From positions 919-64,918 of the forward strand of contig JAZDEZ010000008.1 of assembly GCA_043808365.1 (NCBI GenBank): a DNA stretch of 64,000 nt, written 5' to 3'. Position numbers and translations under genes: made by a program. Position 1 is the first letter of the stretch; each line of letters starts with the position of its first letter. A model generated the notes under the pieces. That model was not told the DNA's origin, made no database searches, and saw nothing but the letters and a program-made list of their open reading frames with translations. This document shows positions 7,540 to 62,245 of this stretch, piece by piece. Origin of the DNA: Patescibacteria group bacterium (GTDB taxonomy: Bacteria; Patescibacteriota; Patescibacteriia; UBA10025; JAHIVO01).

Positions 7540-8972
7540 GTCCCACGGAAGTGATAATGTCCTACTTGAGGGAAGTTAAAATGTCCTACCTCAAGGTAGA
7601 ATGAAATGGTTATTCACTAACCGTTTCACCTATGACATTACTCACTATGTCGACCAAAGAATTGGATAGGTTTCAAATCATCAAGCAGCTAATTGGCAAA
7701 CGCGTTAACGGCACAGAGGCGGCGAGGTTGCTTCAGGTAACCGCTCGCCATGTCAGACGCTTGAAATCCAAGGTACGGCGGTTCGGTCCTCAAGGCCTCA
7801 TTCACGGTAACCGCGGTAAAGTGAGCCATAACCGCCTGCCAGAGGAAGAACTGAAAGCCATCAGCGCCTTGCTTTTCAGGCGCTACCCTGGCTTTGGACC
7901 GACCTTTGCCGGTGAAAAGTTGTCTGAACATCACGGTATCGCGCGTGATCCCAAAACCATCCGCCAGATCATGATTGAGGCGGGATTGTGGAAACCGCGA
8001 TTAACAAAGAAAGCGTCTGTCCACCGGCAGTGGCGAGAAAGAAAGGCCTGTTATGGAGAAATGATCCAATTCGACGGCTCTTATGAGCACTGGTTTGAGG
8101 ACCGGGAAGGAAGCGGGAAAGTCTGCCTGCTAGCCGCCGTTGACGATGCTACTGGTACGGTGGCCAAAGCCGCGTTTGACGTCCACGAGGGGGTGTTTCC
8201 CGTATTCGCCTTTTGGAAAGCATACTTGGCCGCAAACGGCTGCCCCCGGTCGATTTACCTGGACAAATTCAGCACCTACAACATGAATCACCCCATAGCC
8301 AAGGAGAATCCGGACACCCTCACCCAGTTTGAGAGAGCGGCCCGGGAACTCGGGATCGAGCTCATCAAGGCCAACAGCCCCCAGGCTAAAGGCAGGGTGG
8401 AGCGGTTGTTTGCCACACTCCAGGACCGGCTGACGAAAGAGCTCCGGCTCGCCGGTATCTCGACCATTCCGGAAGCTAACGCTTTCTTGGAATCCTACCT
8501 GCCGAAATTCAATGCCCGATTCTCCGTACTACCGCGTTCTACGGCAAACCTGCACCGTCGGTTGACGGTGACCGAGGCTGGTAACCTGAGCAGTGTTTTC
8601 TCTAAACAGGCTGAGCGAACTATCCAAAATGATTTTACCTTCTCCTTTCACGGCCAATGGCGCCAGCTCACCCCGGAGCAGCCGGTGACGGTCTGCAAAA
8701 AGGACACCGTGATGGTCGAAGAGCGCCTGGACAACACAATCCAGGTCAGACTAAGGGGTAAATATCTCAATTACCGGCTATTGCCCACCCGGCCAGCCAG
8801 GCATACCGTGCCCATTAAAATGCCCTGGGTCTTACCGGCCTCAAAGGCCCACGTCCCGCCCCCCAATCATCCCTGGAGGCTGTCATTTAACGCCAGCATA
8901 AAAGCTAAACAAAACGCCCAGGTAGGACATTTCTATTTCCCTGGAAGTAGGACATTTTAACTTCCCGTTGAC
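7540..8972 (+). mobile_element. Insertion sequence (ISNCY-like, single DDE transposase gene)
   Basis: About 55-bp imperfect terminal inverted repeats, each carrying two AATGTCCTAC boxes (left end GTCCCACGGAAGTGATAATGTCCTAC..., right end reverse complement GTCAACGGGAAGTTAAAATGTCCTAC...). A perfect 20-bp core GGGAAGTTAAAATGTCCTAC occurs at 7570-7589 and 8948-8967. The element is flanked by the 17-nt direct repeat ATAAAAAGCCGAAGGCT (7523-7539 and 8973-8989). Confidence 0.85.
7632..8960 (+). CDS. Transposase (N-terminal HTH plus rve/DDE integrase core)
   Basis: 442 aa. The N-terminus KELDRFQIIKQLIGKRVNGTEAARLLQVTARHVRRLKSKVRRFGPQGLIHGNRG is typical of proteins annotated as ISNCY family. The central part is DDE-type. 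Confidence 0.85.
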   Translation: MTLLTMSTKELDRFQIIKQLIGKRVNGTEAARLLQVTARHVRRLKSKVRRFGPQGLIHGNRGKVSHNRLPEEELKAISALLFRRYPGFGPTFAGEKLSEHHGIARDPKTIRQIMIEAGLWKPRLTKKASVHRQWRERKACYGEMIQFDGSYEHWFEDREGSGKVCLLAAVDDATGTVAKAAFDVHEGVFPVFAFWKAYLAANGCPRSIYLDKFSTYNMNHPIAKENPDTLTQFERAARELGIELIKANSPQAKGRVERLFATLQDRLTKELRLAGISTIPEANAFLESYLPKFNARFSVLPRSTANLHRRLTVTEAGNLSSVFSKQAERTIQNDFTFSFHGQWRQLTPEQPVTVCKKDTVMVEERLDNTIQVRLRGKYLNYRLLPTRPARHTVPIKMPWVLPASKAHVPPPNHPWRLSFNASIKAKQNAQVGHFYFPGSRTF

Positions 8973-16060: not shown

Positions 16061-16204
16061 GTTACAAAATCAAAGTTTAAATATCAAAAATTAAATATTT
16101 AGCTTAATAATTATTCCGAATATTTTTAATTTTTTCATTTTGATATTTTATTTATCATCGCTTGCTTTATGCTATTTGATATTTGAAATTTTCAATTTGA
16201 TTTG
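16061..16204. repeat. AT-rich inverted heptamer arrays (TCAA units, then TTGA units)
   Basis: Left part: AAAATCA AAGTTTA AATATCA AAAATTA. Right part: TTTGATA TTTGAAA TTTTCAA TTTGATT, with TTGA ends at 16179, 16186 and 16200 (7-nt register). Located in the intercistronic spacer of the pilin operon. Confidence 0.55.
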
Positions 16205-16810
16205 TCATAACACCTGCCAGTTATACAAACGGTCCTCGATCGTGACGTGCTTGGTAGAGCTTGATGATGGCCAGCGGACTTCAGCCACGACGCGAATGCC
16301 TACTTTGGCATAATCGGTCCCTGTGCCAAAAGACGCGCAATCCTCATCTACCCCGACAGCTACAATTTGTTCATCCCCATCAGAATCTTTTCGACAGATT
16401 GGATTTAAATACACTAACCGATAAAACTGCGTATCATTACCGCTGGCACTGGCTCCTTGCAGATATTCTGCGCCTGACTGCTTTATCACCGTAAAGCCAT
16501 TATCACTGAAATTGAGGGATAACGGATTCGTCCCGTCTACCACGAGCGTGGCCGTATTATCGGTTCCGCTGGTCAGCCCGCTGTCCCAATCCAAAGTCGC
16601 CGTCGCCGCCCAATTGCTGTCGCGGATGTTGCGCGCCAATTCAACCGCTTCACGGGCCAGGCTGGTGCCGATCAGCTTGTTGGTGCTCTCGCGGCCGGCT
16701 TTGATGCTGGCCACGATCAAGGCGATAGTCGTAACCAAAGCCACCACCAGTATGCTGATGGCGATCAGCACTTCGAGCAATGTTTGTCCTTTGGTAGTTA
16801 TTTTTTTCAT
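16205..16810 (-). CDS. Type IV minor pilin (PilV-like)
   Basis: Real start ATG 16810 gives MKKITTKGQTLLEVLIAISILVVALV (prepilin motif G/QTLLE). The 27 upstream codons of the track ORF overlap the preceding gene. Confidence 0.8.
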   Translation of the reverse strand: MKKITTKGQTLLEVLIAISILVVALVTTIALIVASIKAGRESTNKLIGTSLAREAVELARNIRDSNWAATATLDWDSGLTSGTDNTATLVVDGTNPLSLNFSDNGFTVIKQSGAEYLQGASASGNDTQFYRLVYLNPICRKDSDGDEQIVAVGVDEDCASFGTGTDYAKVGIRVVAEVRWPSSSSTKHVTIEDRLYNWQVL

Positions 16811-19295: not shown

Positions 19296-21305
19296 CTACG
19301 GCAATTCCTTCAATTTCTGCTCAGCCAGGGAAAAATTCGATTTGAGCCGTAAGGCGTGCTGGTACTCGGCTCGCGCCTTTTCAATAATGCCGGTAACCTG
19401 GTAATTTTGCCCTAAAAGCAAATGTAAAAATGCCAGCTGGGTGGACAAATTCGGGTTACTGGACGACTCAATTTTCCCATAAGTATGTAATATATTCAAA
19501 ATAGTCTCTTTTGACTTTTCGTAATTTTTTGTTCCAAAATATACCAGCGCCGCGGAATAATAGTAGTCCGGACGGAATGTCGGGTTATATAAAATCGCTT
19601 TTTCATATTCCTGAAGCGCAGCCGGCTCGTTCTTGTCCGCATAATACATCTGTCCCAGATAAAAATATCCCGTATAATACGCTGGATTCTGCCATAACGT
19701 GACCTGGAGTTTTTGTTTCAATTCTTGCTGCTGGTCCGCTGACAACACGCGGTACCCGACGCCTAAAGCACTGACTTCATTGACCAAACTGGCCGGGTCA
19801 GGATCAAACCTCCAGCCCTGCATGTAATAGCGGTGGGACGCCTCGAATTCCCCATCCACTGCCGCTCGCTCTCCATTTTGAAAATTATTCACCCCGAGAA
19901 ATAACGTCACGCCCCTGAGCAACAGGACGGCTGCCAGCAGGGACAAAAAGATTTTTATCCCCGGCATAAACAGCGCTGTACGAGTAGATGGGACAGGCTG
20001 GGATGGATCCCCTGGATTTGATGACGGCTTCACGGCCAACAAGATGCCACCGCTCATCCAGAAAAGAATGAACACGGCGGGAAACTGCCAGCCAAAATCA
20101 AACACGGCATGCACCGCTGAACCGCAGATACCGAGCCATAACCCAAAATAAATATATTTTCTCCCCCGATCTGCCTCGGAGGAAATCTTCTTATAGGTCT
20201 TCAATATCAACAAAATTACAAATGCTAAAAACGCAATGCCGCCAATCACACCGGTTTCAGCGGCAGTCTGGAGGTAATAATTATGCGCATACCGAGGCTG
20301 TTCCAGTACGCTTAGGGCGTATCGTGCGTACACTCCCTGGAATGAATTGTACCCAAAGCCAACTAGCGGTTTGTCCAGGAACATTCTGATCGCCGAATAA
20401 TTAAAATTGAGCCGCTGGTTAAAACTGGATGCTAAATGCTGTTCTGAGATGGTGCTGTAAATCTTCACTGCGTCTGACCAGTTATGGCTCTGGCTGTAAC
20501 GGAAAAGTGTCGCACTGCCGGCTAAAACCAAAACCAACGCCGCCCCTACTAAAACCACTCTTTTGGTAAAAAGCGACTTCCAGAAAAAAAACAGCATTAT
20601 GATGGCCGGCAGGATAAAACTTGCCCAACTGGTATATGAATATGTCAAAATATACGCCGCAATAATAATCAATGTGCAGATATAATAAAGGCACCGTATT
20701 TTCTGCTGGGAATACCGGATTGAAATCATGACGCCCAGTGGCAATGAAAATAACAAATAACTACCCAGGGCATTGGCATTGAACAAGAACCCGGATCCGC
20801 GATTATCCGACTGAATGGCGAACATCATCAGGGATATCAGGGCGGCAATGGCTCCCACGAAAAAAATTATATGGCTGATGGCATTGATCCATCTCCATTC
20901 CCGAAAGAAAAACATCGCTCCGAAAAAAACTACTACATAGCAAGCCAAGAGGAAAATCAGGCTGGCGCTGTCATAGTGGTTTACTGAAAAAAATACCGAA
21001 ACAGCCACCGCGAGTAAAAAAATCACCAGATACAATACAGGCGATTTGAATATCTCCGACCTTGACCCGGCAGATTGCGAAGTCTGCTGGCCGATCAAAA
21101 CAATCAAATAAAATGCTACGAGGGATGTGGAAACTAAAATTGCGGCTTGCAGCCATTTGCTCCATTCCCCGCCAAAAAACGACGGAATTACAATCAAAAA
21201 AATAAACAGGCCTAAAATTACTTTTTGCCTGAACCCAGCCATGTCTTGGGAAATGCGGTCAAGAATCATGGAATAAGTATACCAAAAAAGATAGCAGTCC
21301 ATCAA
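19296..21305 (-). CDS. O-antigen-ligase (Wzy_C)-like polytopic membrane protein with C-terminal TPR repeats
   Basis: 669 aa. At least 10 predicted TM helices with a large loop, then TPR-like YYxGxxYY / A..YEKAI repeats. The exact start is uncertain. Confidence 0.7.
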   Translation of the reverse strand: MMDCYLFWYTYSMILDRISQDMAGFRQKVILGLFIFLIVIPSFFGGEWSKWLQAAILVSTSLVAFYLIVLIGQQTSQSAGSRSEIFKSPVLYLVIFLLAVAVSVFFSVNHYDSASLIFLLACYVVVFFGAMFFFREWRWINAISHIIFFVGAIAALISLMMFAIQSDNRGSGFLFNANALGSYLLFSLPLGVMISIRYSQQKIRCLYYICTLIIIAAYILTYSYTSWASFILPAIIMLFFFWKSLFTKRVVLVGAALVLVLAGSATLFRYSQSHNWSDAVKIYSTISEQHLASSFNQRLNFNYSAIRMFLDKPLVGFGYNSFQGVYARYALSVLEQPRYAHNYYLQTAAETGVIGGIAFLAFVILLILKTYKKISSEADRGRKYIYFGLWLGICGSAVHAVFDFGWQFPAVFILFWMSGGILLAVKPSSNPGDPSQPVPSTRTALFMPGIKIFLSLLAAVLLLRGVTLFLGVNNFQNGERAAVDGEFEASHRYYMQGWRFDPDPASLVNEVSALGVGYRVLSADQQQELKQKLQVTLWQNPAYYTGYFYLGQMYYADKNEPAALQEYEKAILYNPTFRPDYYYSAALVYFGTKNYEKSKETILNILHTYGKIESSSNPNLSTQLAFLHLLLGQNYQVTGIIEKARAEYQHALRLKSNFSLAEQKLKELP

Positions 21306-21320
21306 TTGGCCACCTCATCG

Positions 21321-21457
21321 GACGCCTCAACTTGTTTAGGAAAAGTTGAAAAAAAATCTATCACCTCGATTCAATCTTGCTCAGCGAAGCTATCATCCCG
21401 AACTAGTTCAGGCATCCACTTTCCGCCCTAACGGATGCCTCAACTAGTTGAGGGGGT
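21321..21457. repeat. REP-like palindromes downstream of the RAYT gene
   Basis: GGACGCCTCAACTTGTTTAGG (21321-21341), CCCGAACTAGTTCAGGCATCC (21398-21418) and GGATGCCTCAACTAGTTGAGGGGG (21434-21457). Confidence 0.7.
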
Positions 21458-21460
21458 ATT

Positions 21461-21988
21461 CTATACATCTTGCTCCGTAAAATCAATAATCGGATATAAA
21501 CCAAAACACGACTCCATCCATTCCGTTCCATTCTTTTTTATCCACCCACCGTAACTCGAGTAAAAATAATCTTGCATATTTCTCGCGTATTTGTGCTTAA
21601 CGGGGTTATGATGGATATAATTGAAGTGCTTCCAGTAATCAGCGTCGTCGCGAATGCAATGGTCCCAATAGTTAGTCCAAATCTTCCTGCCGGGCTGTCG
21701 GGCTAATCTATTTAACTCTATCGCGCTTTTCCCATGTAGCGATTTGATAAATGTAACCAAATCCTGCTTCTTTTGAACGTGTATTAACAGGTGATAATGA
21801 TTGCTCAAAATTACCCAGGCGAATATCATTATGTCATACCGCTTAGCCGTAATTAATAGCACTTCTTTTAGCAATGATTTCTTGGTCTCGGTATCAAAAT
21901 ATGGCGCCCTGTCTCTCGTTCTCGCCGCGATAAAATAAATTGTATTATCCAAATAAATATGCGGCGGGTGAAATGGTTTGAACTTCAT
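21461..21988 (-). CDS. REP-associated tyrosine transposase (RAYT, IS200/Y1 family)
   Basis: SNHYHLLIHV (HUH motif) and YIHHNPVKHKYA (catalytic Tyr region). The real start is probably ATG 21988 (MKFKPFHPPHIY); the track start at 22045 lies in the REP region. Confidence 0.8.
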   Translation of the reverse strand: MKFKPFHPPHIYLDNTIYFIAARTRDRAPYFDTETKKSLLKEVLLITAKRYDIMIFAWVILSNHYHLLIHVQKKQDLVTFIKSLHGKSAIELNRLARQPGRKIWTNYWDHCIRDDADYWKHFNYIHHNPVKHKYARNMQDYFYSSYGGWIKKNGTEWMESCFGLYPIIDFTEQDV

Positions 21989-22002
21989 ATGTCTCGTTAT
22001 TA

Positions 22003-22081
22003 CCCCGAACAAGTTCGGGCATCCTGATTCGCATAAACACCTCAATTTGTCCCTCTTTTGGACGCCTCAACTTGTTGAGGG
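22003..22081. repeat. REP-like palindromes upstream of the RAYT gene
   Basis: CCCCGAACAAGTTCGGGCATCC (22003-22024) and GGACGCCTCAACTTGTTGAGGG (22060-22081). These are the same two palindrome types as on the other side. Confidence 0.7.
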
Positions 22082-22096
22082 AATCTTAAATACCCC

Positions 22097-23071
22097 CTAT
22101 CTAATCACAAACTTCTCCATCCACCCCTTTATCTCCTTATTGCCAACTTTTCTCTTCCGCCGAATCTGCCTCCTCTGCCTCAATAACCTCGGCCACGAAA
22201 CCACCAGCGAACCGATAATCTTTGTATAGATCAATATATTTTCCCCAATGGTCATGCGATAATCCGCATCAACCGACTCCCGGCCTTTCATTGATTTCAG
22301 CCATAAACTGGCCGGATAATCCTTAATTGCCGTAAAGAGCCTGTTCCGGCCAGAATGGTATCGGCGGAAAATATACGAGAGTTTCTTGGTAGTGGAGGCG
22401 ACTTTATGGTAAACCACGGCCTGTGGTGCGTACATGATTTTCCAGCCTCGCAGTCGGGCCCGAATTGATAAATCAGAATCCTCAATATAAGCAAAAAAAT
22501 GGCTGTCAAAATAATCCCCACTCAGTTCACAATCCTCCAGCATCTCCCGCCGGTACAAAGCTGCACCAGCCCGTGCTGAAAAACATTCTTCAATTCGATC
22601 ATATTGTCCTTTGTCAATATCTCCATATCCTCGAGTTATCACTTTCAAAGTGCCAGGCAGTAAATAATCGCCGGTGGAATCCAATTTGTCCCTCTCAAAA
22701 AAAAATTTTATTTTACTGGCTACGGCGCCAGTCCGATCATCCTGCTGAGCAACTCTAATTAATTGTTCCAGCCAGTCAGCCTGAACTTCTGTGTCATTAT
22801 TCAATGTGACAATATATTTTATTGAAGAATTTTTCAGCGCCTCTCGTATCCCGACATTATTCCCCTCAGCAAAGCCTGTATTTCTTTTCAAGGGAATAAT
22901 CTGAACATCAGGAAAATTTTTCTCGACAAAACTAACGGAATCGTCAACTGAACCGTTATCAACCATAATGACTTCAAAATCCTTATACGTCTGCGCGAAA
23001 ACAGAACGGAGGCACGCATCCAGATGCTCACGACCGTTCCAGTTGACGATGATGATGGAAATAGTTGGCAT
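22097..23071 (-). CDS. Family 2 glycosyltransferase
   Basis: 324 aa. SIIIVNWNG ... VDNGSVDDS ... typical GT2 (rhamnosyltransferase-like) N-terminal Rossmann region with DxD. Confidence 0.85.
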   Translation of the reverse strand: MPTISIIIVNWNGREHLDACLRSVFAQTYKDFEVIMVDNGSVDDSVSFVEKNFPDVQIIPLKRNTGFAEGNNVGIREALKNSSIKYIVTLNNDTEVQADWLEQLIRVAQQDDRTGAVASKIKFFFERDKLDSTGDYLLPGTLKVITRGYGDIDKGQYDRIEECFSARAGAALYRREMLEDCELSGDYFDSHFFAYIEDSDLSIRARLRGWKIMYAPQAVVYHKVASTTKKLSYIFRRYHSGRNRLFTAIKDYPASLWLKSMKGRESVDADYRMTIGENILIYTKIIGSLVVSWPRLLRQRRQIRRKRKVGNKEIKGWMEKFVIR

Positions 23072-23079
23072 AGGAGTCG

Positions 23080-23173
23080 GTAATTAGTAATCTGTAACTT
23101 GTAATAATTGTTACTGATTACAGGTTACCTGCTTAAATCACTAATTACTATTTACGAATTACTAATTACTTAC
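23080..23173. repeat. Heptamer array: 4 GTAANNN units followed by inverted TTAC units (hairpin-forming)
   Basis: GTAA starts at 23080, 23087, 23094 and 23101. TTAC ends at 23114, 23121 and 23128, then at 23148, 23155, 23162 and 23169. Confidence 0.75.
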
Positions 23174-23195
23174 ATTGTACCCGAAACTCCACAAA

Positions 23196-23228
23196 ACAAA
23201 AAGCGCTCCGGTTAAGAAACGCTTTTTG
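23196..23228 (-). terminator. Candidate terminator after the major-pilin gene
   Basis: AAAAAGCG ... CGCTTTTT, a short stem with flanking A-run and T-run. Confidence 0.4.
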
Positions 23229-23273
23229 TTATGATATCTGTAATTTCTGAATACTAATAAACCAAACAAACAC

Positions 23274-23744
23274 TTATGGCGTCACATCACACGCTATTCC
23301 AGTTATTGGCATCGCTGCTACCTTATCATCAGAGCCGCCTAACGAGTCAACCCAGAAAAAAGTATTTGCTGGCGATTCCAAATTGGCCCACAATACATAA
23401 GCGCCATTCGTAATTGCTGGCGTCCCTGAACTTGCGCATGTGATAAAGTGGTATGTTCCGCCGCTTGTCGGATCAGTTGGCAATTTGGAGATATAATCAG
23501 ACACTAATGCAGTCCCAAGAACCGCATAACTATCTGTTGCTGCTGCCGGGTATGCCGCAGAACTATCATCCGCATACAGCACCAACGCCGTCTTCACCTG
23601 GGAAATATCAGATTTGCGGGTCGCATCACGGGCCTTTTCACGGGCGCCGTTCAAAGCGACCAATCCGATCGTTGCCAAAATACCGATGATGGCAATAACC
23701 ACCAATAACTCAATTAAAGTGAAACCCTTTTTATTTATTTTCAT
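23274..23744 (-). CDS. pilA: Type IV pilin (candidate major pilin)
   Basis: MKINKKGFTLIELLVVIAIIGILATIGLVALNGAREKARDATRKSDISQVKTAL. It has its own terminator candidate and sits directly downstream of pilC. Confidence 0.85.
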   Translation of the reverse strand: MKINKKGFTLIELLVVIAIIGILATIGLVALNGAREKARDATRKSDISQVKTALVLYADDSSAAYPAAATDSYAVLGTALVSDYISKLPTDPTSGGTYHFITCASSGTPAITNGAYVLWANLESPANTFFWVDSLGGSDDKVAAMPITGIACDVTP

Positions 23745-25160: not shown

Positions 25161-25327
25161 GTGTGCTTTTGTTTAGGTAACCGCTAATCCTATTCTCACG
25201 AATTCCACTAATCCCTGATTTCCATTGCTGTTAATATGGTCGCGCACCCACAGAGAGGTGCGCTCGGGAGGATGTAACTAACCTACTAGTAGCTAACCGA
25301 CTAATTACTAACCTACTATCTTACTAT

Positions 25328-31326: not shown

Positions 31327-31440
31327 GTCAACCCCGTTAGAAAATGTACAATTATTGTTAATACAATTAAGGGAAGTTAATATCAATTAATGTCCTTCTA
31401 TCAGGAAATGATTTTTTATACATTTTCTAACGGGGTTGAC
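31327..31440. mobile_element. MITE-like element with 22-bp perfect terminal inverted repeats
   Basis: GTCAACCCCGTTAGAAAATGTA at 31327-31348 has its exact reverse complement at 31419-31440. The interior GGGAAGTTAATATCAATTAATGTCCT resembles the IS inner repeat GGGAAGTTAAAATGTCCT. The termini share GTCAAC...AAAATGT with the IS right end. Confidence 0.6.
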
Positions 31441-31588: not shown

Positions 31589-32698
31589 TTAAACGATTTC
31601 CCTCATCGCGAGGCCGATCGACACTGACATGCGCGGCCCCAGCTCTTTCAATAACGAATTGATTTCAATGGGATGGATAACCCGGGCCCACGGATCGCCG
31701 ATAAATGATTTGATGTTGAAGATGCTTTCGATGGAAGAGGAGATGTTAGCCAGGAACGCCGACCCGCCGGTTATGATCACTTTCGTGATCGGCTTCTTGT
31801 TCTGGTTCTGGTAAATGTTCAGGATATACCGGATCTCATTGATGATGGAATTGATGACATAGCTCATCGGTTTCGGCAGTTTGCTGGCCGCGTCGCCTGA
31901 AATCGACCGGCTGACATCGCGCTTGAACTGCTCGGCCTGGGCCGCGGTCAGGCCCATGGTTTCCTGCAAGGAGCGGGTGATCCCCTTGCCGCCGACGTCG
32001 ATGCTGCGGTTGAGGATCGGCACGCCGCTGGAAAAAATAATGATGCTGGACGTCTGGCCGCCGATGTCGATCACCATCACCGGATTCATGTCATTGCCGA
32101 CCAGGGACCGCTCCAACGCGAACGACTCGGTCTCCAGGCCGACGAGCTGCAAACCGACCATTTTGAAAAGCTCGACGTACCGGTTGACCAGGTTTTTCGG
32201 CGCGGCGGTCATCAGGATGCGTAAATTCGCTTTCGGGGCAGGCGCGCCGATCTCTTTCTTCCCATCCGGATTCCCTGAATCCGCGCCTGCTGCCGGGGCG
32301 GCCGGTTTCGGCCCCGCCGGCTCTTTCAGGACCTCCCAGTCCAGAATCATCTCCTCCAGCGGTATGGGGACGAACTTTTTCGCTTCCCACCGGATGGCGG
32401 ACACCAAATCCTTGTCTTTCATGGCCGGCAAGTTGATGATGGAGCTGAACACGGAAAAAGACGGCAGCGCCGTGACCGCTGAAGCGGAACCGGCCCGCGT
32501 CTGCTTGATCAGGTCCTGGAGCTGTTTGGCAATCGCGGCCCGCGCCACCGGGTTGTCATCCTTGATGATATTGTAGGTCTCATCGATAAAACCGTACGTC
32601 ACCAATTGCGGGCGGCCATTGCCGGCATTGCGCAACTCGACCAGCTTGATGCTCGCGCCGCTCAGGTCGATGCCCAGATAGTTTAAGTTTTTAGCCAT
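31589..32698 (-). CDS. pilM: Type IV pilus assembly protein PilM (actin-like ATPase fold)
   Basis: 369 aa. LGIDLSGASIKLVELR start and the DIGGQTSSIII phosphate-2 motif. Confidence 0.9.
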   Translation of the reverse strand: MAKNLNYLGIDLSGASIKLVELRNAGNGRPQLVTYGFIDETYNIIKDDNPVARAAIAKQLQDLIKQTRAGSASAVTALPSFSVFSSIINLPAMKDKDLVSAIRWEAKKFVPIPLEEMILDWEVLKEPAGPKPAAPAAGADSGNPDGKKEIGAPAPKANLRILMTAAPKNLVNRYVELFKMVGLQLVGLETESFALERSLVGNDMNPVMVIDIGGQTSSIIIFSSGVPILNRSIDVGGKGITRSLQETMGLTAAQAEQFKRDVSRSISGDAASKLPKPMSYVINSIINEIRYILNIYQNQNKKPITKVIITGGSAFLANISSSIESIFNIKSFIGDPWARVIHPIEINSLLKELGPRMSVSIGLAMREIV

Positions 32699-32785
32699 CC
32701 TTGTTCAATGTATAATTGATAATTTCTAATGCATAATTTGTTACTTTGATTATACATTTTGCCTTATAAATTCCCTCCTAATATC

Positions 32786-32835
32786 TAACAACTAATTACT
32801 AATTACCAACTACTAATTACTGATTACTAACTTAC
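32786..32835. repeat. Heptamer array (NNNTTAC), spacer between the giant gene and pilM
   Basis: TAATTAC TAATTAC CAACTAC TAATTAC TGATTAC, with (T/C)TAC ends at 32799, 32806, 32813, 32820 and 32827. It overlaps the stop codon of the giant gene. Confidence 0.7.
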
Positions 32836-44291: not shown

Positions 44292-44369
44292 AGGAAATTT
44301 AAAGGGAGGACAAGGGTAACATGGGATGCAAGGGGGAGCAGGGGACTTCAAGGGTAGATACTGGTGCTA
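44292..44369. repeat. Array of about 9-nt NNNCAAGGG units (left arm of four-helix-bundle cassette 1)
   Basis: TTTAAAGGG AGGACAAGGG TAACATGGG ATGCAAGGG GGAGCAGGG GACTTCAAGGG. It contains the IR half GGGGAGCAGGGGACTTCAAGGG (44333-44354). Confidence 0.75.
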
Positions 44370-44789
44370 TTAAGGCTTTTTAATTTTGCTGGCTCCGCTA
44401 TTAAAATTATTCATACGTTTTTTAGTTTCTAATGATTTTACTAACTTTGAGAATAAATAATCAGTTTTACCGCATAGGGCGTCTAATTTTCTAAATTCCA
44501 CCTCGGTAATCAATTGGTCTTCGAAGCAATCTTCTATATCACCCTGCAATTCGGAAAGTGACGGCTGGCAAATATTTTTCAGGGCGTTGATGTACTGGCC
44601 AAGGGTCTGGCGGTACCCTTCCTGAATATTCTGCTTTACCGAGCGGGCGGCGCTGTTCATCTGGCTGACACGCCTGATTTCAGATTTTGGAAAACGCCTC
44701 GACATTTCATAGACCGCGCTTCTTAACTGGCTGGCGTTCCGCCAAACAATTAGATCTTTATACCCCTGCTTGTATTTTTTATCCAACAT
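44370..44789 (-). CDS. Four-helix-bundle protein (23S rRNA intervening-sequence protein / Avd family)
   Basis: 139 aa. YKDLIVWRNASQLRSAVYEMSRRFPKSEIRRVSQMNSAARSVKQNIQEGY matches the F.DL.VWQ.A..L...IY.....FPK.E.. L..Q..RAA.S...NIAEG pattern of TIGR02436/PF05635. Confidence 0.8.
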   Translation of the reverse strand: MLDKKYKQGYKDLIVWRNASQLRSAVYEMSRRFPKSEIRRVSQMNSAARSVKQNIQEGYRQTLGQYINALKNICQPSLSELQGDIEDCFEDQLITEVEFRKLDALCGKTDYLFSKLVKSLETKKRMNNFNSGASKIKKP

Positions 44790-44805
44790 ATTTCAATCGT
44801 GTAAT

Positions 44806-44925
44806 TATCCCCCTTGAAACCCCTGATTTCCCTTGGACCCCCCTAATCTCCCTTGAAATTACCCTGAATCTCCCCTTGCCTTCCCTTGAAACCCCCTGCT
44901 CCCCTGTGGAACCCCTGAATCTTTA
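44806..44925. repeat. Array of about 10-nt CCCTTGA/CCCCTGA units (right arm of cassette 1, inverted relative to the left arm)
   Basis: AACCCCTGA TTTCCCTTGG ACCCCCCTAA TCTCCCTTGA AATTACCCTGA ATCTCCCCTTG CCTTCCCTTGA AACCCCCTGC... IR half CCCTTGAAACCCCCTGCTCCCC (44883-44904) matches 20/22 with the reverse complement of 44333-44354. Confidence 0.75.
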
Positions 44926-44930
44926 CGTGC

Positions 44931-47162
44931 TTACAACTCATTGCAAATTATTTCGGTAATCTGGGAATTGGCGTCGAGGGTAAGGCCCGTCATAAATTTG
45001 CCGCCGATGGTGGCGCAGTTGGCCACGCCGCTGGAAACCGGAACCACCTCGTCACTGCCGCCCCACTGGTTATTTTCCGCCTGAACGTCACTGCCAACGG
45101 TAAGATTATTTCCCACCATGCCCGCGCCTGACACGTTGACATGGCCGGGCTGGGGGGTAATGTTGCACGACCCATATATTTCACAATCACTGTTATTCTT
45201 ACAGACGCGGGTTGGCCGTCCGGAACAGAATCCCAGCCGGTCAAGATTCACAACCGTATTTAGATCCGTATGCCCCTGGCCCGAACCGGAATAAAATTTC
45301 TGCAGATTAAGTGGCCTGGTTTCGTCGCATCCAGTACTGTTGCAAGTGTTTAACGTCCATAAATATGTCCCGTCAAAAAGCAGTCTAGCGCCAGACCAGT
45401 CTGACCATAAACGAGTAGGATACCCCTTAATTTCACCATTAGCGGCAGTGATCCGATATACCGAATTACCGATACCAGGTTCTCCCAGCCCAGCCAGCCA
45501 GACATAAGTGCCATCAAAGGCCAGGTCTGACGCCTCAAGCTTTGAACTAAGCGCTAATGGCATAAATTGGCTGTCAGACACGCGGAATTTGGCCACTTTC
45601 CCTTCTGTCCCTATATAGCTGGAAATAACCCAGATATGGGCGCCGTCAAAGATCAGCCGCCCGGGCGCGGATAGTCCAGTCGCGTAGCGCCCTACAACGG
45701 CGCCGGTATCCGGATCGATTTTTATTAAATTTTCCGGATTTTGCTGGCAACCTGGGCCACTGACGCAAATTTGGATAGTCGCGGGTCGTGTCGCGCCCTG
45801 CGTGACATTGGGCAATAAAGTCCAGATATAGCCATCGGCAAAAATAATTCCCTCCGGCCTGACGCGCCAGCCGGCGCTGTTCAAACGGTTCAGGTCAACG
45901 CCAGCGCCGTTTGTTCCCACGGGATAAATGCCGACCCGATTGCAGTCAGAATCGATTTTTGTTATGTCGCCGCCATCAGGACTGACCGTCCAAATAAACA
46001 CCTTGCCATCATCATCCACGCTGGTGGCAATTTCACGGGGAATAACCCCAAAATTGACCGTACCGCAGTGCTCCGTCACTGATCCATCTTGGGGATCAAA
46101 CTTTGTCAATGTAGCGTCATAATTCGACAGCCACAAATACCGGCCGTCAAACGTGATATTAGTACCTTCTGTGTTGGGCAAATTATACGTACCTATTACC
46201 TCGCCGTCAGACGCCCGAATTTTCCACAACTCATTGCCATCGTCATCGCTAAATTTATTCATAACCCAAATATTTGAACCGTCGAATGCCATATCTGGAA
46301 ACAAAAAACTATTTGATCCGGCTGCCGCTGACGCCGGATATTCCCCTATTTTCTGCCCGGCCGCAAACGGCACTAATGATCTTTGCAATTGCGTCGGCAG
46401 AAATATGCCGGCCGCCACGTCCGCCCCGGCGCCGAAAAACCCTTTGAAATACCCGGCCAGGCCGCTGCCCGTATTCTGACCATAGACGGCCGCGTCGGTA
46501 AGCGCTCCTGTTTCGACATAGATGCCTTTACCGCCCGTGCTGACTCCCTTTAGGCCGTTCCCGTTTACACTCTGGCCGCTGACCGCCTGACTGCTGTTGC
46601 CGGTATAGAGGCCATAGACACCCGTTCCGCCCATTGAAGCCGCGGTCAGGCCGGCGCCTTTTGAGCTGTATCCGCTGACCGCCCGGCCATTGATCGGGGC
46701 CGCGCCACTGCCGATCCGCGCCATTCCACCCTCTACTATCAGCGCCGTGTCCGGCGTCTGGAATTTCGTACCGATGCCCACCCAGCCTTCGGTGGAATTC
46801 GCGTAGAGGACGTCGTCATCGACGGCCAGCACGTCGTTATAAACATATGGCGTGGAAAAAATGGCGCCATCACCTCGGACATCCAATGGCTTCAGGGGAG
46901 GATCCGCGGAGAACGAACTGGACTGCGTCAGGTCATACGTCGGTAAAATTTCAAGCGACCCGGCCTTAGCCTGGTTCTCGGGACCCGTCGTCAGCGGAGC
47001 GTCAAAAGTCTCCGTCGGCGGCGCTGATGACGGCTCCAACCACTCGGCTTGGGCCACGCGCGCCCCGCCCTGGGCAATTCCAACACACGCCAGAATCCCC
47101 AGGATGAAAAATGTCCCGAGGTTTTTCCTGAATATATTTTTTTTGATATTTAATCTCTTCAT
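44931..47162 (-). CDS. Secreted beta-propeller repeat protein, paralog 1 (743 aa)
   Basis: Signal peptide MKRLNIKKNIFRKNLGTFFILGILACVGIAQG, then AEWLEPSSAPP... The body carries FDG(T/S/R/A)(Y/N/H)(L/I/V)W blades. The C-terminus is C..G.F..G...(n)..ITEIICNEL. Confidence 0.85.
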   Translation of the reverse strand: MKRLNIKKNIFRKNLGTFFILGILACVGIAQGGARVAQAEWLEPSSAPPTETFDAPLTTGPENQAKAGSLEILPTYDLTQSSSFSADPPLKPLDVRGDGAIFSTPYVYNDVLAVDDDVLYANSTEGWVGIGTKFQTPDTALIVEGGMARIGSGAAPINGRAVSGYSSKGAGLTAASMGGTGVYGLYTGNSSQAVSGQSVNGNGLKGVSTGGKGIYVETGALTDAAVYGQNTGSGLAGYFKGFFGAGADVAAGIFLPTQLQRSLVPFAAGQKIGEYPASAAAGSNSFLFPDMAFDGSNIWVMNKFSDDDGNELWKIRASDGEVIGTYNLPNTEGTNITFDGRYLWLSNYDATLTKFDPQDGSVTEHCGTVNFGVIPREIATSVDDDGKVFIWTVSPDGGDITKIDSDCNRVGIYPVGTNGAGVDLNRLNSAGWRVRPEGIIFADGYIWTLLPNVTQGATRPATIQICVSGPGCQQNPENLIKIDPDTGAVVGRYATGLSAPGRLIFDGAHIWVISSYIGTEGKVAKFRVSDSQFMPLALSSKLEASDLAFDGTYVWLAGLGEPGIGNSVYRITAANGEIKGYPTRLWSDWSGARLLFDGTYLWTLNTCNSTGCDETRPLNLQKFYSGSGQGHTDLNTVVNLDRLGFCSGRPTRVCKNNSDCEIYGSCNITPQPGHVNVSGAGMVGNNLTVGSDVQAENNQWGGSDEVVPVSSGVANCATIGGKFMTGLTLDANSQITEIICNEL

Positions 47163-47173
47163 TTACTTTCCGC

Positions 47174-47271
47174 GGATTACTTGTTACCCGTTACTAATTA
47201 CGAATTACTATTTACTAATTACTTATTACCTTTTATCTATTATTTATTATCTATTACTTATTACCTTCTAC
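47174..47271. repeat. Heptamer array, 14 NNNTTAC units in unbroken register
   Basis: TTAC/TTAT/CTAC ends at 47180, 47187 ... 47271 (every 7 nt). It fills the spacer between the stop of the 1677-aa gene and the start of the 743-aa gene. Confidence 0.85.
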
Positions 47272-47275
47272 ATGC

Positions 47276-50200
47276 TTACAGCCCCCGGCATTTCAGAGTG
47301 GCGGGTACATTGTCTAGCGCCCCATTTGCCAGGTTGCGCTTCTCAATGCGCCAGCCGGCAAACCCGTCCAAATTGCCGAAGGTATATATGTAGGTATCGT
47401 CAATCGCGATATCGCGGCCGTACTGGACGTCATTTGGGTTGGCATTACTGTAAATCGCGATGGAACCGGAACCGCTATCGCCGAACCCGATTCCACAATT
47501 TCCTGCTGTGCACAGCGCACCCGTATCCAAGCGGCGTTTCTCCATGTACCAACCGTCGTCATTCATGGACCGGTAGCCGATCAGATACATGTAATCATCG
47601 TCAATGGCGATTGAATTCACCCCATCAGCAATATTCGTCACAACCGTGATTGCTCCGCTGCCTGAATCGCCGAAGTTACCGGCCGAGCAAGCACCGCCGG
47701 TGCAGAGCGAGCCATTGTCCTTGTCATATTTCCTGATATGCCAATTGGCATTGTCCATGCCGGCTACGTAAAGATAATCAGAGTCAACGGAAATACCGCC
47801 GACATAGGTCGTGTTATCATCCACGGTAGCGGTGGTCTCTGTAATAACCCCGCTGCTGCCAAAACCGCTGTCTAAGCTGCCATCCGTGAGCAAGCGCTTT
47901 TCAATGCGCCATTGGAGATTTTCATCAAACCCAAACACGTACATGGAGGCATCGTCAATATCAATATCGTGCGCTGAACTTGTCAGGGCGCTGCTTTCGA
48001 CATACCCATCACCGTCAAAAGCAGTGCCGCAAACAGCTGCCGTGCACAAATCTCCCGTGCCCAGCAACCGTTTTTCCGTCCGCCAAGTATTTGAACTGCT
48101 CTGGCCGGTTACGTACATATATTGGCTGTCGATGGCAATTGCTCTGGCCGCTTTGCCGCCCGCCGCGTTTAATGCCCATGCCTGACTGCCGTTTGTTTTA
48201 GCACGTTTCTCGATATGCCATACATCAAGCGGTGTCTGGCCGACTGTATAAAGATAAGTATCATCAATTGCCACATCCCAGCCGGCATTGCTGCCGCCAT
48301 TAGCCGCCGCTCCGGTAATGATGCCATCGCCGTCAAAACCCGTATCGAGAGTCCCGCTCCAAATATCGCGCTTCTCGGCGCGCCAGCGAGTATTTATATC
48401 CGTATCTGAATTTCCAGCCAGATACACACTGCTTTCATCAACCGCGATGCCCCAGCCAAGCGTGCTCCCGTTCATGCCGTCCTCCCGGATATACCCGCTC
48501 GTCCCAAAAGAAACAGCGCGGCTGGTGAGATCAATGCCCTTCACATACTGGCCGTCTTGGCAGCTCTGTCCGGTATTCCTGTCATCGTCCGCCGCGCCTG
48601 CCCAGGCGTTATTAGCGACGACTAAATCACCAACCACTGTCAACTTCGCGCCAAAAGCCGCCGAGCCATCAGCGGAAAAACTGCCCGGCTGGGAATCGAC
48701 GCTCCACTGGCTAGCGTCGCGGAGCTGGACAGAACCGGCAAGATCAGCGGCGCCGCGCCCACTGCCGACATAGTACTGTTTCAAGGAGTACCCCTCGTAC
48801 CAGGCCAACCCGTAGGATGTGATCCACAAACTATTGCCGTCAAAAATTGCCGCCCGCGTATCGTACTTAGTGCCGAGCGTGACGCTCTCGACAATCTGGT
48901 CAGTGGCCGCCGCGATTCTGGTCAAGTAGCGGTTATTTTCCGAACTGGTTTCTTCCGACGTGTCGAGCGCGCTGCTGCAGCCGGGATCCGGCTTGCCGCT
49001 GCACCCGGGATTGCCGATGCCTCCGTCAAAGTCGCACAAGCTGTTGCCGTCGTTATCCAGGTGATCGGAGCATTGCCCCACAGCCGGTGAAATGTCATGG
49101 TACCCGACATGAGTGGCCCAGACGTAGGTGCCGTCAAAAGTCAGCGTGGTAACGTTGGCGGTGTCCCCGTCCTTAAAAATCGAGTACTTGGCCGCAACCA
49201 CGGCATTGCAGTCATTGCCGCCGCAATCGGCAGGAGTGTTGCAAACCAAGGTGGTATTATTGCTGCAAACCCCGGCATGGGTGCTGTCCCCGCCGTAGGG
49301 GTCTATCTTATAAATGCTGTTTCCGTCCGCGTCCGCGAAGTACGAACCGACCCAGAGGTAGGTGCCGTCGTACATGATAGACCTGATCGGCCGCGCACCG
49401 CCGCCAGGCGACTGGGTCGACATCTCTGCAATGCTCAGCCTGGATAAGAACGCGCCATCCTGCCTGACGTTTACCACCTTCCTGCTATTGTTGAGCGAAG
49501 CCCAGATACTGCCGCTCGCCTGCGCCAGCAGATGCGGCCGCTCGTTTACTCCGATGTACCCACCGAGCGTATACCGCGTGTAGCTGGTACAGACATGCGA
49601 TCCGGGACTACAGCTCGATAAATCGATCCGCAAGAGATAATTACTATCTTGTTCTAAGGATGCCCAGAGGTACGCGCCGTCGTAAGAAAGGTCGTAGACA
49701 TACTTTTCTCCAAGGCCAGCCAACTCGTACTCATCTACCGTTAAGCCGGTTTTTGGATCGACCTGTCGAAACCACATTTTAAAATCGTGCGCGTGGGGCA
49801 GCCACAAGCTCGCCCCGTCAAAAGTGATGTACCCGACATCGAAGCCCATGTCATAGTCGCTGATTTTTTTACCGTCGGAGGCGCGGTACTTACTGAGGTA
49901 AGTCGAAGCTGAAGCGGTTCCCCAGAGGTACGTGCCGTCAAATATGAAATCATCATAACCCGCGCCGAGAATTGGAACAGTAGTGTCGACGTACGGCGCC
50001 TCCATGGTTCGCTTCCCCACGCTGCCGATCCGTCCGAAACCCTGCCAGATGATGGGATTGCTGGGATCGCGCGGGTCATAGGTGAAATCATACAGGGTGC
50101 GGTCCCAGGGACCCTCCCCGTAGTGGTTTTGCTCCACGCCGTCAGTGTCAAACTTCTCCAGAAAACCTTTGCTGCCGACCCAGACCGATGGCCCGCCCGG

Positions 50201-52309: not shown

Positions 52310-52320
52310 CTACTTTCCGC

Positions 52321-52453
52321 GGATTACTTATTACCCGTTACTGATTACTAATTACGAATTACTTATTATTTATTATTTATTACTTATTACCTATTATTTA
52401 TTACTTATTACATTGTTCATGGTTCTAAGTTCAAAGTTCATGGTTCATAGTTC
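52321..52453. repeat. Heptamer array, 19 units: 13 NNNTTA(C/T) then 6 NNNGTTC in the same register
   Basis: Units end at 52327, 52334 ... 52411 (TTAC/TTAT) and at 52418, 52425 ... 52453 (GTTC) with no phase break. Confidence 0.85.
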
Positions 52454-56231: not shown

Positions 56232-56237
56232 TTAGAC

Positions 56238-56265
56238 TAAGAACTTTGAACCGAAAACACTGAAC
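56238..56265. repeat. NNNGAAC heptamers (left arm of four-helix-bundle cassette 2)
   Basis: TAAGAAC TTTGAAC CGAAAAC ACTGAAC (ends at 56244, 56251, 56258 and 56265), followed by the hairpin CTGAAC-tggaatatc-GTTCAG. Confidence 0.7.
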
Positions 56266-56296
56266 TGGAATATCGTTCAGATTATATTTGATACTT

Positions 56297-56653
56297 ATGT
56301 TATTCAGATTCAGACAATTTCCTGTTTACAAGGATTCCAGAAAATTCCGAAATGACATATACGCTTTAACGAAAAAATTTCCTAAAGAAGAGCTATTCAG
56401 TTTAACTTCGCAAATCAGACGCGCGACAAACTCCATCTTATTGAACATTGCTGAAGGATCAAACCGACTGTCCGATAATGACTTTGGACGCTTTTTAAAT
56501 ACAGCATTGACTTCACTTGAAGAAGCAGTCGCCTGTATGGATATTGCGCTCGATGAAAAATATATTAGCCTACAAGATCACGAAAAACACCTTGCATTAG
56601 CAGAAAACCTTGGCAAGCAATTACTCGGTTTCAGCAAAAAACTTCGAAAGTAA
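56297..56653 (+). CDS. Four-helix-bundle protein (23S rRNA intervening-sequence protein / Avd family)
   Basis: FPVYKDSRKFRNDIYALTKKFPKEELFSLTSQIRRATNSILLNIAEGSNR is a close match to the TIGR02436 pattern. The ATG at 56297 is preferred over the TTG at 56288. Confidence 0.85.
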   Translation: MLFRFRQFPVYKDSRKFRNDIYALTKKFPKEELFSLTSQIRRATNSILLNIAEGSNRLSDNDFGRFLNTALTSLEEAVACMDIALDEKYISLQDHEKHLALAENLGKQLLGFSKKLRK

Positions 56654-56663
56654 GCTAAATTTA

Positions 56664-56753
56664 TAGGTTCCAAGTTCCTAGACAAAGTTGATTGTTCAAG
56701 GTTCTAAGTTCCTAGTCCCAAGTTCATTGTTCCCAGTTCATAGTCCTGAGTTC
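56664..56753. repeat. 13 NNNGTTC heptamers (right arm of cassette 2, inverted relative to the left arm)
   Basis: TAGGTTC CAAGTTC CTAGAC AAAGTTG ATTGTTC AAGGTTC TAAGTTC CTAGTCC CAAGTTC ATTGTTC CCAGTTC ATAGTCC TGAGTTC. The track ORF 56688-57668 wrongly translates this array as an HtpX N-terminal extension. Confidence 0.8.
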
Positions 56754-56765
56754 AACGTAAATCCC

Positions 56766-57672: not shown

Positions 57673-57810
57673 ATGGATAATAAAAAAGACATCATTACCG
57701 AGGTACAGACTGGCACCGCCACTTCGACAAAAATTACTCTCGGGATTTCTATTGCCGCGGGAATTATTACCGCCGCCGCCATCATCTTGGCGCTGACGAA
57801 CATCAAATGA
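57673..57810 (+). CDS. Possible 45-aa tail-anchored membrane peptide (below the track cutoff)
   Basis: MDNKKDIITEVQTGTATSTKITLGISIAAGIITAAAIILALTNIK. It starts 5 nt after the htpX stop. No clear SD. Confidence 0.3.
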   Translation: MDNKKDIITEVQTGTATSTKITLGISIAAGIITAAAIILALTNIK

Positions 57811-57997
57811 ACTACCTCGCAGCAAGCTGACGAGGTATCGTCAGCCAAGAGATATGTTCATTCTCCGTAGCTAGCTATCCTCCTTCGCTTGCGCTTCGGA
57901 GGATTCTCCTCATTTGTTTCCCCGCAGTCCAGCCTTCGTAGCCGAAGCTACTTCGGCGGAGCAGGCCAAGCTGCGGAGTATTAATGCGGAGGAGAAT
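57807..57997 (+). repeat. Dispersed GC-rich hairpin repeat, long copy
   Basis: ATGAACTACCTCGCAGCAAGCTGACGAGGTATCGTCAGC...GTTCATTCTCCGTAGCT ... CAGTCCAGCCTTCGTAGC ... GCGGAGGAGAAT. It matches 62132-62245 but carries two extra internal hairpins. Confidence 0.75.
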
Positions 57998-62119: not shown

Positions 62120-62131
62120 CAAACTGCTACA

Positions 62132-62245
62132 ATGAACTACCTCGCAGTAAGCTGACGAGGTATCGTCAGCAAAGAAATGCGTTCATTCTCCGTAGCTTCT
62201 CTTTAATTCATTTCTCTCAGTCCAGACTTCGTAGCGGAGGAGAAT
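62132..62245 (+). repeat. Dispersed GC-rich hairpin repeat, short copy
   Basis: ATGAACTACCTCGCAGTAAGCTGACGAGGTATCGTCAGCAAAGAAATGCGTTCATTCTCCGTAGCT...CAGTCCAGACTTCGTAGCGGAGGAGAAT, starting 13 nt after the clpC stop. Confidence 0.75.

Follow-up and report, generated by a model that had tools for sequence, protein, structure and literature searches.

The pilin-GT2 spacer in a Patescibacteria pilus cluster

The window analysed here, a stretch of 64,000 nucleotides of contig JAZDEZ010000008.1, comes from a metagenome-assembled genome (MAG) of the Patescibacteria and represents a type IV pilus cluster, with genes for PilB, PilC, PilM, PilO, a prepilin peptidase, minor pilins and, after a GT2 glycosyltransferase, a Wzy_C-TPR protein. 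Our subject is an array of inverted 7-nt units in the 202-nt spacer (23072-23273) between two genes of the minus strand: the major type IV pilin gene (23274..23744; an open reading frame (ORF) of 156 aa, N_methyl E = 1e-9, syntenic in orthologous loci) and the GT2 gene that the array precedes (22097..23071; Pfam PF00535, E = 2e-26, with orthologues found). These profile matches agree with the pilin and glycosyltransferase flanks named in an initial annotation, which was made from the sequence alone.

On the plus strand, GTAA begins at 23080, 23087, 23094 and 23101 (four GTAANNN units, 23080-23104), and TTAC begins at 23111, 23118 and 23125 (three TTACNNN units, 23111-23128); a second TTAC set starts at 23145, 23152, 23159 and 23166, plus a fifth core at 23170 (23145-23173). 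The initial annotation had described four GTAANNN units facing three TTACNNN units, followed by four more, in DNA devoid of ORFs; its coordinates hold, the last set having four to five units, and the spacer contains no ORF of at least 40 aa. Only the GTAA or TTAC core, that is, four of the seven positions, is constant, the triplets varying from unit to unit, and TRF reports 82% matches over 23136-23170; the perfect tandem copies that define a phase-variable simple sequence repeat are absent. Period 7 is the sole enriched short period within the window, where GTAAN3GTAAN3GTAA (with at most one mismatch) occurs 27 times against 0.14 expected. The inverted form, GTAAN3GTAAN3GTAA-N(5-35)-TTACN3TTACN3TTAC, occurs at a single site, the array at 23080-23173, against 0.00 expected. 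Two arm pairs can be drawn, one between 23079-23098 and 23110-23129 (80% complementary) and a longer one between 23080-23110 and 23139-23169 (inverted repeat I1; 31 nt, 81% complementary).

Read in the sense direction, the spacer runs from the pilin stop codon through a terminator, a -10 box, six GTAA units, three GTAA units, four TTAC units and 7 nt to the GT2 ATG (23071), all features lying on the minus strand. The terminator-like hairpin of the pilin transcript (~23186..23236; inverted repeat I9, 14 nt at 93%) has the stem AAAAAGCG...CGCUUUUU, followed by GUUUUGU, and appears as a 15-bp stem in the fold of the 202-nt spacer. A -10-like hexamer, TACAAT (23174..23179), was read from the sequence and abuts the first GTAA unit; it aligns across the orthologous leaders described below, and a promoter consensus scan did not call it. 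The distal sense array (23139..23173) consists of GTAA, GTAATTA, GTAATTC, GTAAATA, GTAATTA and GTGATTT, and is separated by a 9-nt spacer from the proximal sense array (23111..23129), which reads G-GTAACCT, GTAATCA, GTAA. The connector CAATTA then leads into the antisense array (23079..23104; TTACAAG, TTACAGA, TTACTAA, TTACC), which ends 7 nt before the start codon. The start region itself, GACUCCU plus AUG (23069..23078), has no Shine-Dalgarno (SD) motif, and CCGAC(C/U)..AUG is also found in one of the orthologous loci, L002. The array is real, non-random and strongly self-complementary, and takes up the interval from a conserved -10 box to a start codon that lacks an SD.

As the sense order puts both the terminator and the -10 box upstream of the array, the array would form the 5' leader of GT2 and is not the terminator of the pilin gene. 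An equivalent terminator hairpin with T-tract was present in all eight orthologues where the spacer was first examined, and a -10-like hexamer (TACAAT, TATAAT or TATACT) stands at the same place in all eight orthologues examined for it; such conservation is evidence, if not proof, that GT2 has a promoter of its own. The proposal in the initial annotation that the array acts as a terminator-like separator of pilin and GT2 expression can therefore be set aside: the true terminator lies 60 nt upstream, the A/U-rich stem of the array is followed by CCGACUCCUAUG with no U-run, and a terminator scan made no call. At the Rfam gathering threshold only tRNAs were recovered from the window, leaving the array without a match; at E <= 1 two sub-threshold matches appeared, Thr_leader and mir-9457, both on the terminator hairpin (23180-23257) and not on the array.

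A stable leader fold is predicted

Stability was compared with that of 200 dinucleotide shuffles. The sense RNA (23176-23069) has a predicted free energy of -29.2 kcal/mol against -13.7 +/- 2.9 for the shuffles (z = -5.4, 0 of 200 as good), and a second run gave z = -5.7, again better than all shuffles, so that the check proposed with the initial annotation, RNA folding, came out well beyond its controls. In the minimum free energy (MFE) structure the partner of the UUAC arm is the distal GUAA array, as in I1, the two being joined through 13 bp, one mismatch, 4 bp, an internal loop and further pairs, while the proximal GUAA units fold into a small inner hairpin. The core-to-core pairing that the initial annotation had drawn, between the UUAC arm and the proximal array (inverted repeat I4), is possible given the 80% complementarity of these arms, but it yields the weaker conformer, at -16.8 versus -29.2 kcal/mol. 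Upstream of the AUG, the stretch from -31 to -9 has a pairing probability near 1; the last 7 nt and the AUG are open, with a predicted probability of being unpaired near 1. Since sense-only GUAA arrays of the same genome are unusually unstructured, less so even than their shuffles (z = +1.0 and +0.7), it is the inverted segment that creates the structure.

The layout recurs in some orthologous loci

An exact-protein look-up with the window's GT2 returned no match, and a scan of genome contigs with GT2 gave only two useful loci; the comparison comprises ten other lineages with a syntenic pilin-GT2-Wzy locus which, with the window, make 11 GT2 lineages. The comparison of orthologous loci that had been suggested alongside the initial annotation gave a divided answer: the layout is present in four of the 11 (the window, L002, L010 and L012) and the other seven lack the array. 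The GT2 proteins of the array-bearing relatives are 73% (L002, whose locus is identical to L003 and L005), 77% (L010) and 67% (L012) identical to that of the window. In each of these relatives GTAANNN units begin within 0-11 nt of the hexamer and three or four TTACNNN units end 0-15 nt before the ATG. L012 carries a second copy in the leader of its Wzy gene, in the order TTATAAT, five GTAA units, a 70-nt insert with hairpins of its own, three TTAC units and ATG. Across all five GTAA instances the first unit lies 0-11 nt past the -10 box. The same order of parts is therefore found in four diverged lineages and before a second gene, with the cores conserved and the spacers free.

In a MAFFT alignment of the four GT2 leaders, the -10 box, the G-T-A-A of the 5' units and the T-T-A-C of the 3' units are invariant, unlike the triplets, and L010 carries an insertion of 21 nt (three units). 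As MAFFT will align any two GTAA arrays core to core, the case for homology of the leaders rests also on unique stretches: the window has ATTTAAG between its arrays in common with L010, and TTACCGAC-CU-ATG in common with L002. Copy number is identical in L002 and L003, which are independent assemblies and the sole near-identical pair, and the indel seen between species is 21 nt. The two leaders of L012 fold with z = -2.6 and -3.9.

The array-free leaders are mostly short and plain, except that the leader of L105 is about 310 nt long and that of L107 contains REP-like hairpins. The GT2 tree is star-like and uninformative; it gives no support to monophyly of the array-bearing lineages, a grouping which we dropped, and gains cannot be ordered against losses on such a tree. 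No ORF lies between pilin and GT2 in any of the 11 lineages. A hidden Markov model (HMM) built from an alignment of PF05635 homologues found no PF05635 gene in the GT2 loci L001-L012, or within 10 kb of any GT2 locus scanned, and the gene calls of L105-L107 include none between pilin and GT2. Nothing indicates that the site of the GT2 array ever contained an ORF.

Periodic inverted arms around PF05635 genes

The initial annotation had also likened the layout to the arms of four-helix-bundle cassettes, and this comparison is well founded. Two genes of the window code for PF05635/TIGR02436 four-helix-bundle proteins, and both are bracketed by inverted short-period arrays: the gene at 44370-44789 (minus strand) lies between CAGGGG/CAAGGG and CCCTTG/CCCCTG units (region 44300-44930), and that at 56288-56653 (plus strand) between four GAAC and twelve GTTC units (region 56232-56760). 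In both, the 3' array extends to the ATG of the gene that follows. Forty aligned homologues served to fetch 80 metagenome loci; among the 72 with enough flank, the 160 nt upstream and downstream of the gene are inverted-complementary at z > 4 in 52, a direct-comparison control giving mostly background. Inspection of 16 loci showed arms with a period of 7 or 8 nt, built on a core that differs from locus to locus. Conversely, 60 of 74 periodic inverted arrays with loops of 250-700 nt (in 48 of 78 loci) enclose a PF05635 gene, which makes up about 7% of the sequence searched.

The cassette placed between LemA and M48 genes is syntenic in L102/L103 and L104 and keeps its GAAC/GTTC core, with about 6 and 3 units versus the 12 in the window; synteny across species with the same core indicates vertical inheritance, and there is no sign of an excision or insertion polymorphism at this cassette, the only one checked across species. 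A purine-rich bias of the 5' arm is weak (38 of 59, p = 0.036) and is a property of the arrangement and not of the strand, because GTAA...TTAC reads alike on both strands.

The GT2 array has stem-forming inverted arms of the same periodic kind as the two cassettes of the window, has no PF05635/TIGR02436 ORF between its arms, and sits between protein-coding genes and not in helix 25 or 45 of 23S rRNA. It belongs to a general architecture shared with the PF05635 cassettes, and is a gene-less example of the repeat architecture that elsewhere brackets these genes. Among the 80 metagenome loci no PF05635 gene has clear GTAA/TTAC arms on both sides; L042 has TTAC units downstream only.

As a separate observation, many homologues of the protein encoded at 56288-56653 are found on very short contigs (0.6-2.5 kb), which would fit assembly breaks at repetitive flanks.

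Gene-less hairpins as a class

Across all loci we found 39 periodic hairpins with loops of at most 160 nt. For 23 of these the ATG of an ORF of 70 aa or more lies within -6 to +30 nt of the arm end, the rate for random positions being 13.8% per strand, or roughly 26% for either strand, and many of the hairpins begin directly past the preceding stop codon. By inspection, gene-less hairpins in L087, L028 and L025 have the core of a neighbouring cassette. Nine viral contigs likewise contain GTAA/TTAC hairpins, in some cases together with cyanobacterial GCGATCGC motifs, and no PF05635 gene was found near these hairpins in the stretches searched.

Gene-less inverted heptad or octad hairpins with other cores were noted in L022 (3600-3760), L087 (597-662), L092 (594-673) and L094 (5067-5194), the cores being GTGTAAT/TTACAC, TCAGCTT, CCACCGA and TGGTAGA. 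On inspection these hairpins span the interval from a stop codon to the next ATG, sometimes on a contig that also carries a PF05635 cassette, whose core may be the same or another.

A leader hairpin as the favoured explanation

We favour the explanation that the array is a cis-acting RNA leader hairpin limiting or gating GT2 expression, to which we give about an even chance. Action in cis as RNA is what we infer from the anatomy of the spacer, the predicted stability and the recurrence in relatives; the contrast with the unstructured sense-only arrays, the position of many gene-less hairpins just before start codons and the precedent of hmw1A, discussed below, also speak for it. Pilin transcription would end at the canonical terminator and restart from the conserved -10 box, the new transcript beginning inside the GUAA heptads. 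The 5' GUAA array would then pair with the UUAC array, whose end is 7 nt from the SD-less AUG, closing nearly the whole leader into one long, A/U-rich, mismatch-punctuated stem. Such a stem could act by occluding the landing zone of the ribosome, by exposing a long double strand (13 + 4 + 4 or more bp) to RNase III, or by protecting the 5' end, and a single-strand binder that covers about 7 nt, for instance a cold-shock-domain or S1-type protein, might open it by settling on the GUAA units. The scanned proteins of the window do not include an rnc product.

If this is correct, the hairpin suggests that pilin-glycosylation genes (GT2 here, and a Wzy-type ligase in a relative) use their own promoter and a closed, SD-less leader, which would constitute a control point separate from that of the highly expressed pilin.

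Several observations weigh against this explanation. The promoter, transcription start and processing of the GT2 leader are all predictions. Folded as DNA, the same array gives z = -5.6 and beats 200 of 200 shuffles, and its antisense RNA is also structured (z = -3.3), so that folding alone does not tell which molecule acts. The leaders of L002 and L010 fold no better than shuffles to a significant degree (z = -1.75 and -0.65). The array is missing from the GT2 spacer of L001, L004, L006, L011, L105, L106 and L107 and, being carried by only four of 11 orthologue lineages, is dispensable. Matched triplets had on inspection suggested compensatory co-evolution of the arms, an idea that was dropped after an RNAduplex comparison in which the 3' arm paired no better with its own 5' array (-19.5 kcal/mol) than with the arrays of other orthologues (-22.5 kcal/mol). 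An excess of G:U pairs in the sense strand of the cassette arms is not significant (134 vs 111, p = 0.16). The weak folds of L002 and L010, the own-versus-cross comparison and the lack of a G:U excess, taken together, leave selection on a specific RNA helix with no support from covariation. Finally, at least four array-filled spacers of the window have counterparts of only 5-13 nt in L001 and L004, from which it follows that the genome of the window gained arrays at several sites, and lineage-specific gain of this kind resembles repeat proliferation.

Alternative explanations

The last points lead directly to an account in terms of neutral or selfish repeat dynamics, in which slippage or template switching builds arrays in tolerant intergenic DNA, the inverted part arises by template switching or palindromic duplication, and the hairpin is incidental. 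We consider this somewhat unlikely, yet it accommodates the lineage-specific spacers, the absence of a G:U strand bias in the cassette arms, a pairing that is generic to the core and not tuned to register, and the division of genomes into array-bearing (window, L002, L012, L010) and array-free ones in a way that does not follow the GT2 tree. Heptamers are, moreover, the commonest long simple repeats in prokaryotes and have been ascribed to polymerase slippage (Mrazek 2007, summarised in PMC4679880). It is harder to reconcile with slippage that the units are too degenerate for the process to be efficient, and that lineages with GT2 proteins 22-39% different from one another have retained the 4-nt cores although the 3-nt spacers have drifted. 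Nor does incidental growth predict the recurrence of -10 box, sense array, antisense array and ATG at five sites, the enrichment of gene-less hairpins immediately upstream of start codons, or the retention of the GAAC/GTTC core across species at the LemA-PF05635-M48 arms. The conservation of the cores would also suit a periodic binding platform, where GTAA/GUAA cores spaced 7 nt apart contact an oligomeric single-strand binder (a cold-shock-domain (CSD) or OB-fold protein, a HutP- or TRAP-like ring, possibly a PF05635 pentamer) and the hairpin is the unbound state. The cores are invariant and the spacers free also in sense-only arrays that have no complementary partner, and the low structure of those arrays would suit a single-strand binder; HutP recognises UAG triplets at 7-nt spacing. 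Precedent also comes from CspB, of which one protein is bound per heptamer (reviewed in PMC4679880). However, the cores of other loci are different (GAAC, CAGGGG, CAGCT, GGCATAT and others), and so widely that one sequence-specific factor cannot serve them all, while no candidate binder is encoded beside the array among the window proteins and no PF05635 gene lies within 10 kb of the GT2 loci. We regard such a platform as unlikely. The leader-hairpin, repeat-proliferation and binding-platform explanations are not mutually exclusive as to the origin of the array and its present effect.

That the array is an empty cassette, with arms left after loss of a four-helix-bundle gene or pre-formed to await one, is attractive in that the order of parts is the same as in the PF05635 cassettes (sense array, payload, antisense array, next ATG), that 70 nt of payload separate the two arms in the L012 Wzy leader, and that gene-less hairpins stand beside some cassettes, with a shared core in three loci. 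We nevertheless judge it improbable, given the lack of a pilin-GT2 ORF in all 11 lineages, the lack of a PF05635 gene with clear two-sided GTAA arms among the 80 loci, the vertical inheritance at one site of the LemA-PF05635-M48 cassette with no polymorphism seen, and the GTAA/TTAC hairpins of viral and cyanobacterial-like contigs with no PF05635 gene in the stretch searched. Very improbable, finally, is either a pilin terminator, against which the A/U-rich stem, the missing U-tract and the terminator 60 nt upstream all speak, or an element of REP/REPIN type (REP, repetitive extragenic palindrome) mobilised by a neighbouring REP-associated tyrosine transposase (RAYT). The array is an intergenic palindrome, and a RAYT gene (NF047646, 110.6 bits; ~21461-22045) does lie directly downstream of GT2, between it and the Wzy_C gene. 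This RAYT is flanked, however, by three copies of its own ~49-nt repeat with the hairpin CCTCAACnnGTTGAGG (21302-21350, 21415-21463 and 22042-22090), which is unrelated to the heptads, and either element is found without the other: at the corresponding position L107 carries a RAYT, with no heptad hairpin, whereas in L002 and L012, which have the heptad hairpin, a RAYT is missing both between GT2 and Wzy and from the rest of the stretch examined. We therefore reject a RAYT/REP origin.

Other REP-like hairpins, caccctttagggtg and cagcctaaaggctg, are carried by L107 and L012.

Relation to known repeats and leaders

The closest functional parallel to the proposed leader hairpin is hmw1A of Haemophilus influenzae, where an (ATCTTTC)n repeat in the 5' untranslated region (5'-UTR) forms a hairpin that is cut by RNase III, raising expression (PMC12721329). 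In hmw1A, as predicted for GT2, a 7-nt array makes up the left arm of a long 5'-UTR hairpin whose complementary right arm lies just upstream of a gene for a surface structure; hmw1A expression is controlled post-transcriptionally, and the 5'-UTR position of the GT2 array is deduced from the conserved -10 box. The two differ in that the hmw1A repeats are perfect and phase-variable whereas the GT2 array is degenerate (four conserved positions and three free), and in that the right arm of hmw1A is a non-repetitive G-rich tract whereas that of GT2 is the inverted array itself. RNase III cleavage has been demonstrated for hmw1A, in contrast to the GT2 hairpin, which is a predicted fold.

Intergenic heptamer direct repeats near start codons have been described with the unit TAACTGA in Beggiatoaceae, cyanobacteria and Bacteroidetes (PMC4679880), and heptamers are also reported from Nostoc (bioRxiv 10.1101/2022.06.06.494920). 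By the definition used for such MacGregor-type repeats the GT2 array qualifies, consisting of tandem 7-nt units that are intergenic and forward and stop 7 nt short of an ATG that lacks a purine-rich SD. The described arrays likewise are tandem and forward, lie between genes a few nucleotides from an SD-poor start, are sporadic across lineages and have stop codons in all frames, and translational control has been proposed for them. They are direct repeats, however, predicted to be unstructured like the sense-only arrays of the window, with one inverted case among 170 sets; the GT2 array has a unit other than TAACTGA, comes from Patescibacteria, and is defined by its inverted 3' units and a strong predicted hairpin.

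Cyanobacterial short tandemly repeated repetitive (STRR) sequences are also tandem heptamers, intergenic, in either orientation and of lineage-specific abundance, with specific, near-perfect units. The viral-contig matches with GCGATCGC motifs look cyanobacterial, and we found no link in the searchable literature between STRR arrays and leader hairpins or PF05635 genes. REPs and bacterial interspersed mosaic elements (BIMEs) resemble the GT2 element as short intergenic palindromes between co-directional genes, as possible barriers affecting mRNA stability or translation, and in having a RAYT next door; the GT2 element differs in its periodic units, in lacking a conserved REP sequence, in not being a palindrome that flanks the RAYT, and in a presence uncoupled from that gene.

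PF05635 ORFs are known inside stem-forming intervening sequences (IVSs) of 23S rRNA, for example that of Coxiella burnetii (PMC4990558). Inverted arms around a loop with or without an S23p/PF05635 ORF are common to these and to the arrays described here, the two PF05635 genes of the window having such arms; the GT2 element differs in lying in an mRNA leader and not in rRNA helix 25 or 45, in having no ORF and in having periodic heptads as arms. Outside diversity-generating retroelements (DGRs) we know of no function for PF05635/Avd-like four-helix-bundle proteins, and the searchable literature contains no described link between their genes and heptamer arrays.

We tentatively suggest a wider class, possible though short of probable, of 'heptad clamps': inverted 7-8-nt periodic arrays with a locus-specific 4-5-nt core, which would close a leader or spacer into a stem abutting the start of the next gene. 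Such arrays occur either alone, between a stop codon or promoter and the next start, or around a PF05635/TIGR02436 gene, which at many loci sits in the loop, and on this view would be the mRNA counterpart of the rRNA intervening sequences. The stem might be processed by RNase III or opened by a binder with a heptad footprint, and the four-helix-bundle protein could be a passenger or a trans-acting partner of the stems. Heptamer-repeat leaders and intergenic palindromes are kinds already known, but we met no description in the searchable literature of PF05635 genes in stems of locus-specific heptad arrays with gene-less versions before other genes. For decades, intergenic heptamer arrays have been on record with no mechanism; three properties, namely fixed cores with free spacers, the contrast between unstructured sense-only and structured inverted arrays, and the strong association with PF05635, provide a concrete, testable link joining heptad arrays, long RNA stems and the 23S-IVS/Avd-like four-helix-bundle family, and the pattern deserves a dedicated survey.

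Other arrays and repeats of the window

Three spacers, at 32785-32835, 47163-47264 and 52323-52411, are taken up by sense-oriented arrays of the GTAA type. Arrays of other types are found at 25274-25326 (TAGTA) and 52411-52453 (TGAAC). An A/T-rich inverted heptad array (TCAAAT/ATTTGA type; 16063-16207) occupies the 144-nt spacer between two minor-pilin genes; its fold is no better than that of shuffles (z = -0.8), and the same spacer measures 5-9 nt in L001, L002 and L004 and about 20 nt in L012. Array-like sequence also occurs in the RR-PilC spacer of L002 and L012.

A 192-nt stretch is present in two copies of 83% identity (47086-47277 and 52233-52424); it spans the GTAA array, GTAATCCGCGGAAAGTA(A/G)ATG as leader and, as MKRLNIKKNIFRKN, the opening codons of two large unannotated proteins of 743 and 1677 aa, and the genes upstream share the end ...TGCCGGGGGCTGTAAG. 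Elsewhere, inverted repeats of 39 nt (85%) at 7543-8966 surround an ORF of 442 aa (7632-8960) with helix-turn-helix (HTH) and, weakly, integrase-core (rve_3) matches, an arrangement like that of an insertion sequence, and a 67-nt direct repeat (93%; 57806-57872 and 62131-62197) brackets an unannotated 459-aa ORF and a ClpB-type ATPase. A 25-nt inverted repeat (31327-31351 and 31416-31440; 96% complementary, 64-nt loop) lies in the spacer upstream of a 727-aa gene that follows PilM (31589-32698).

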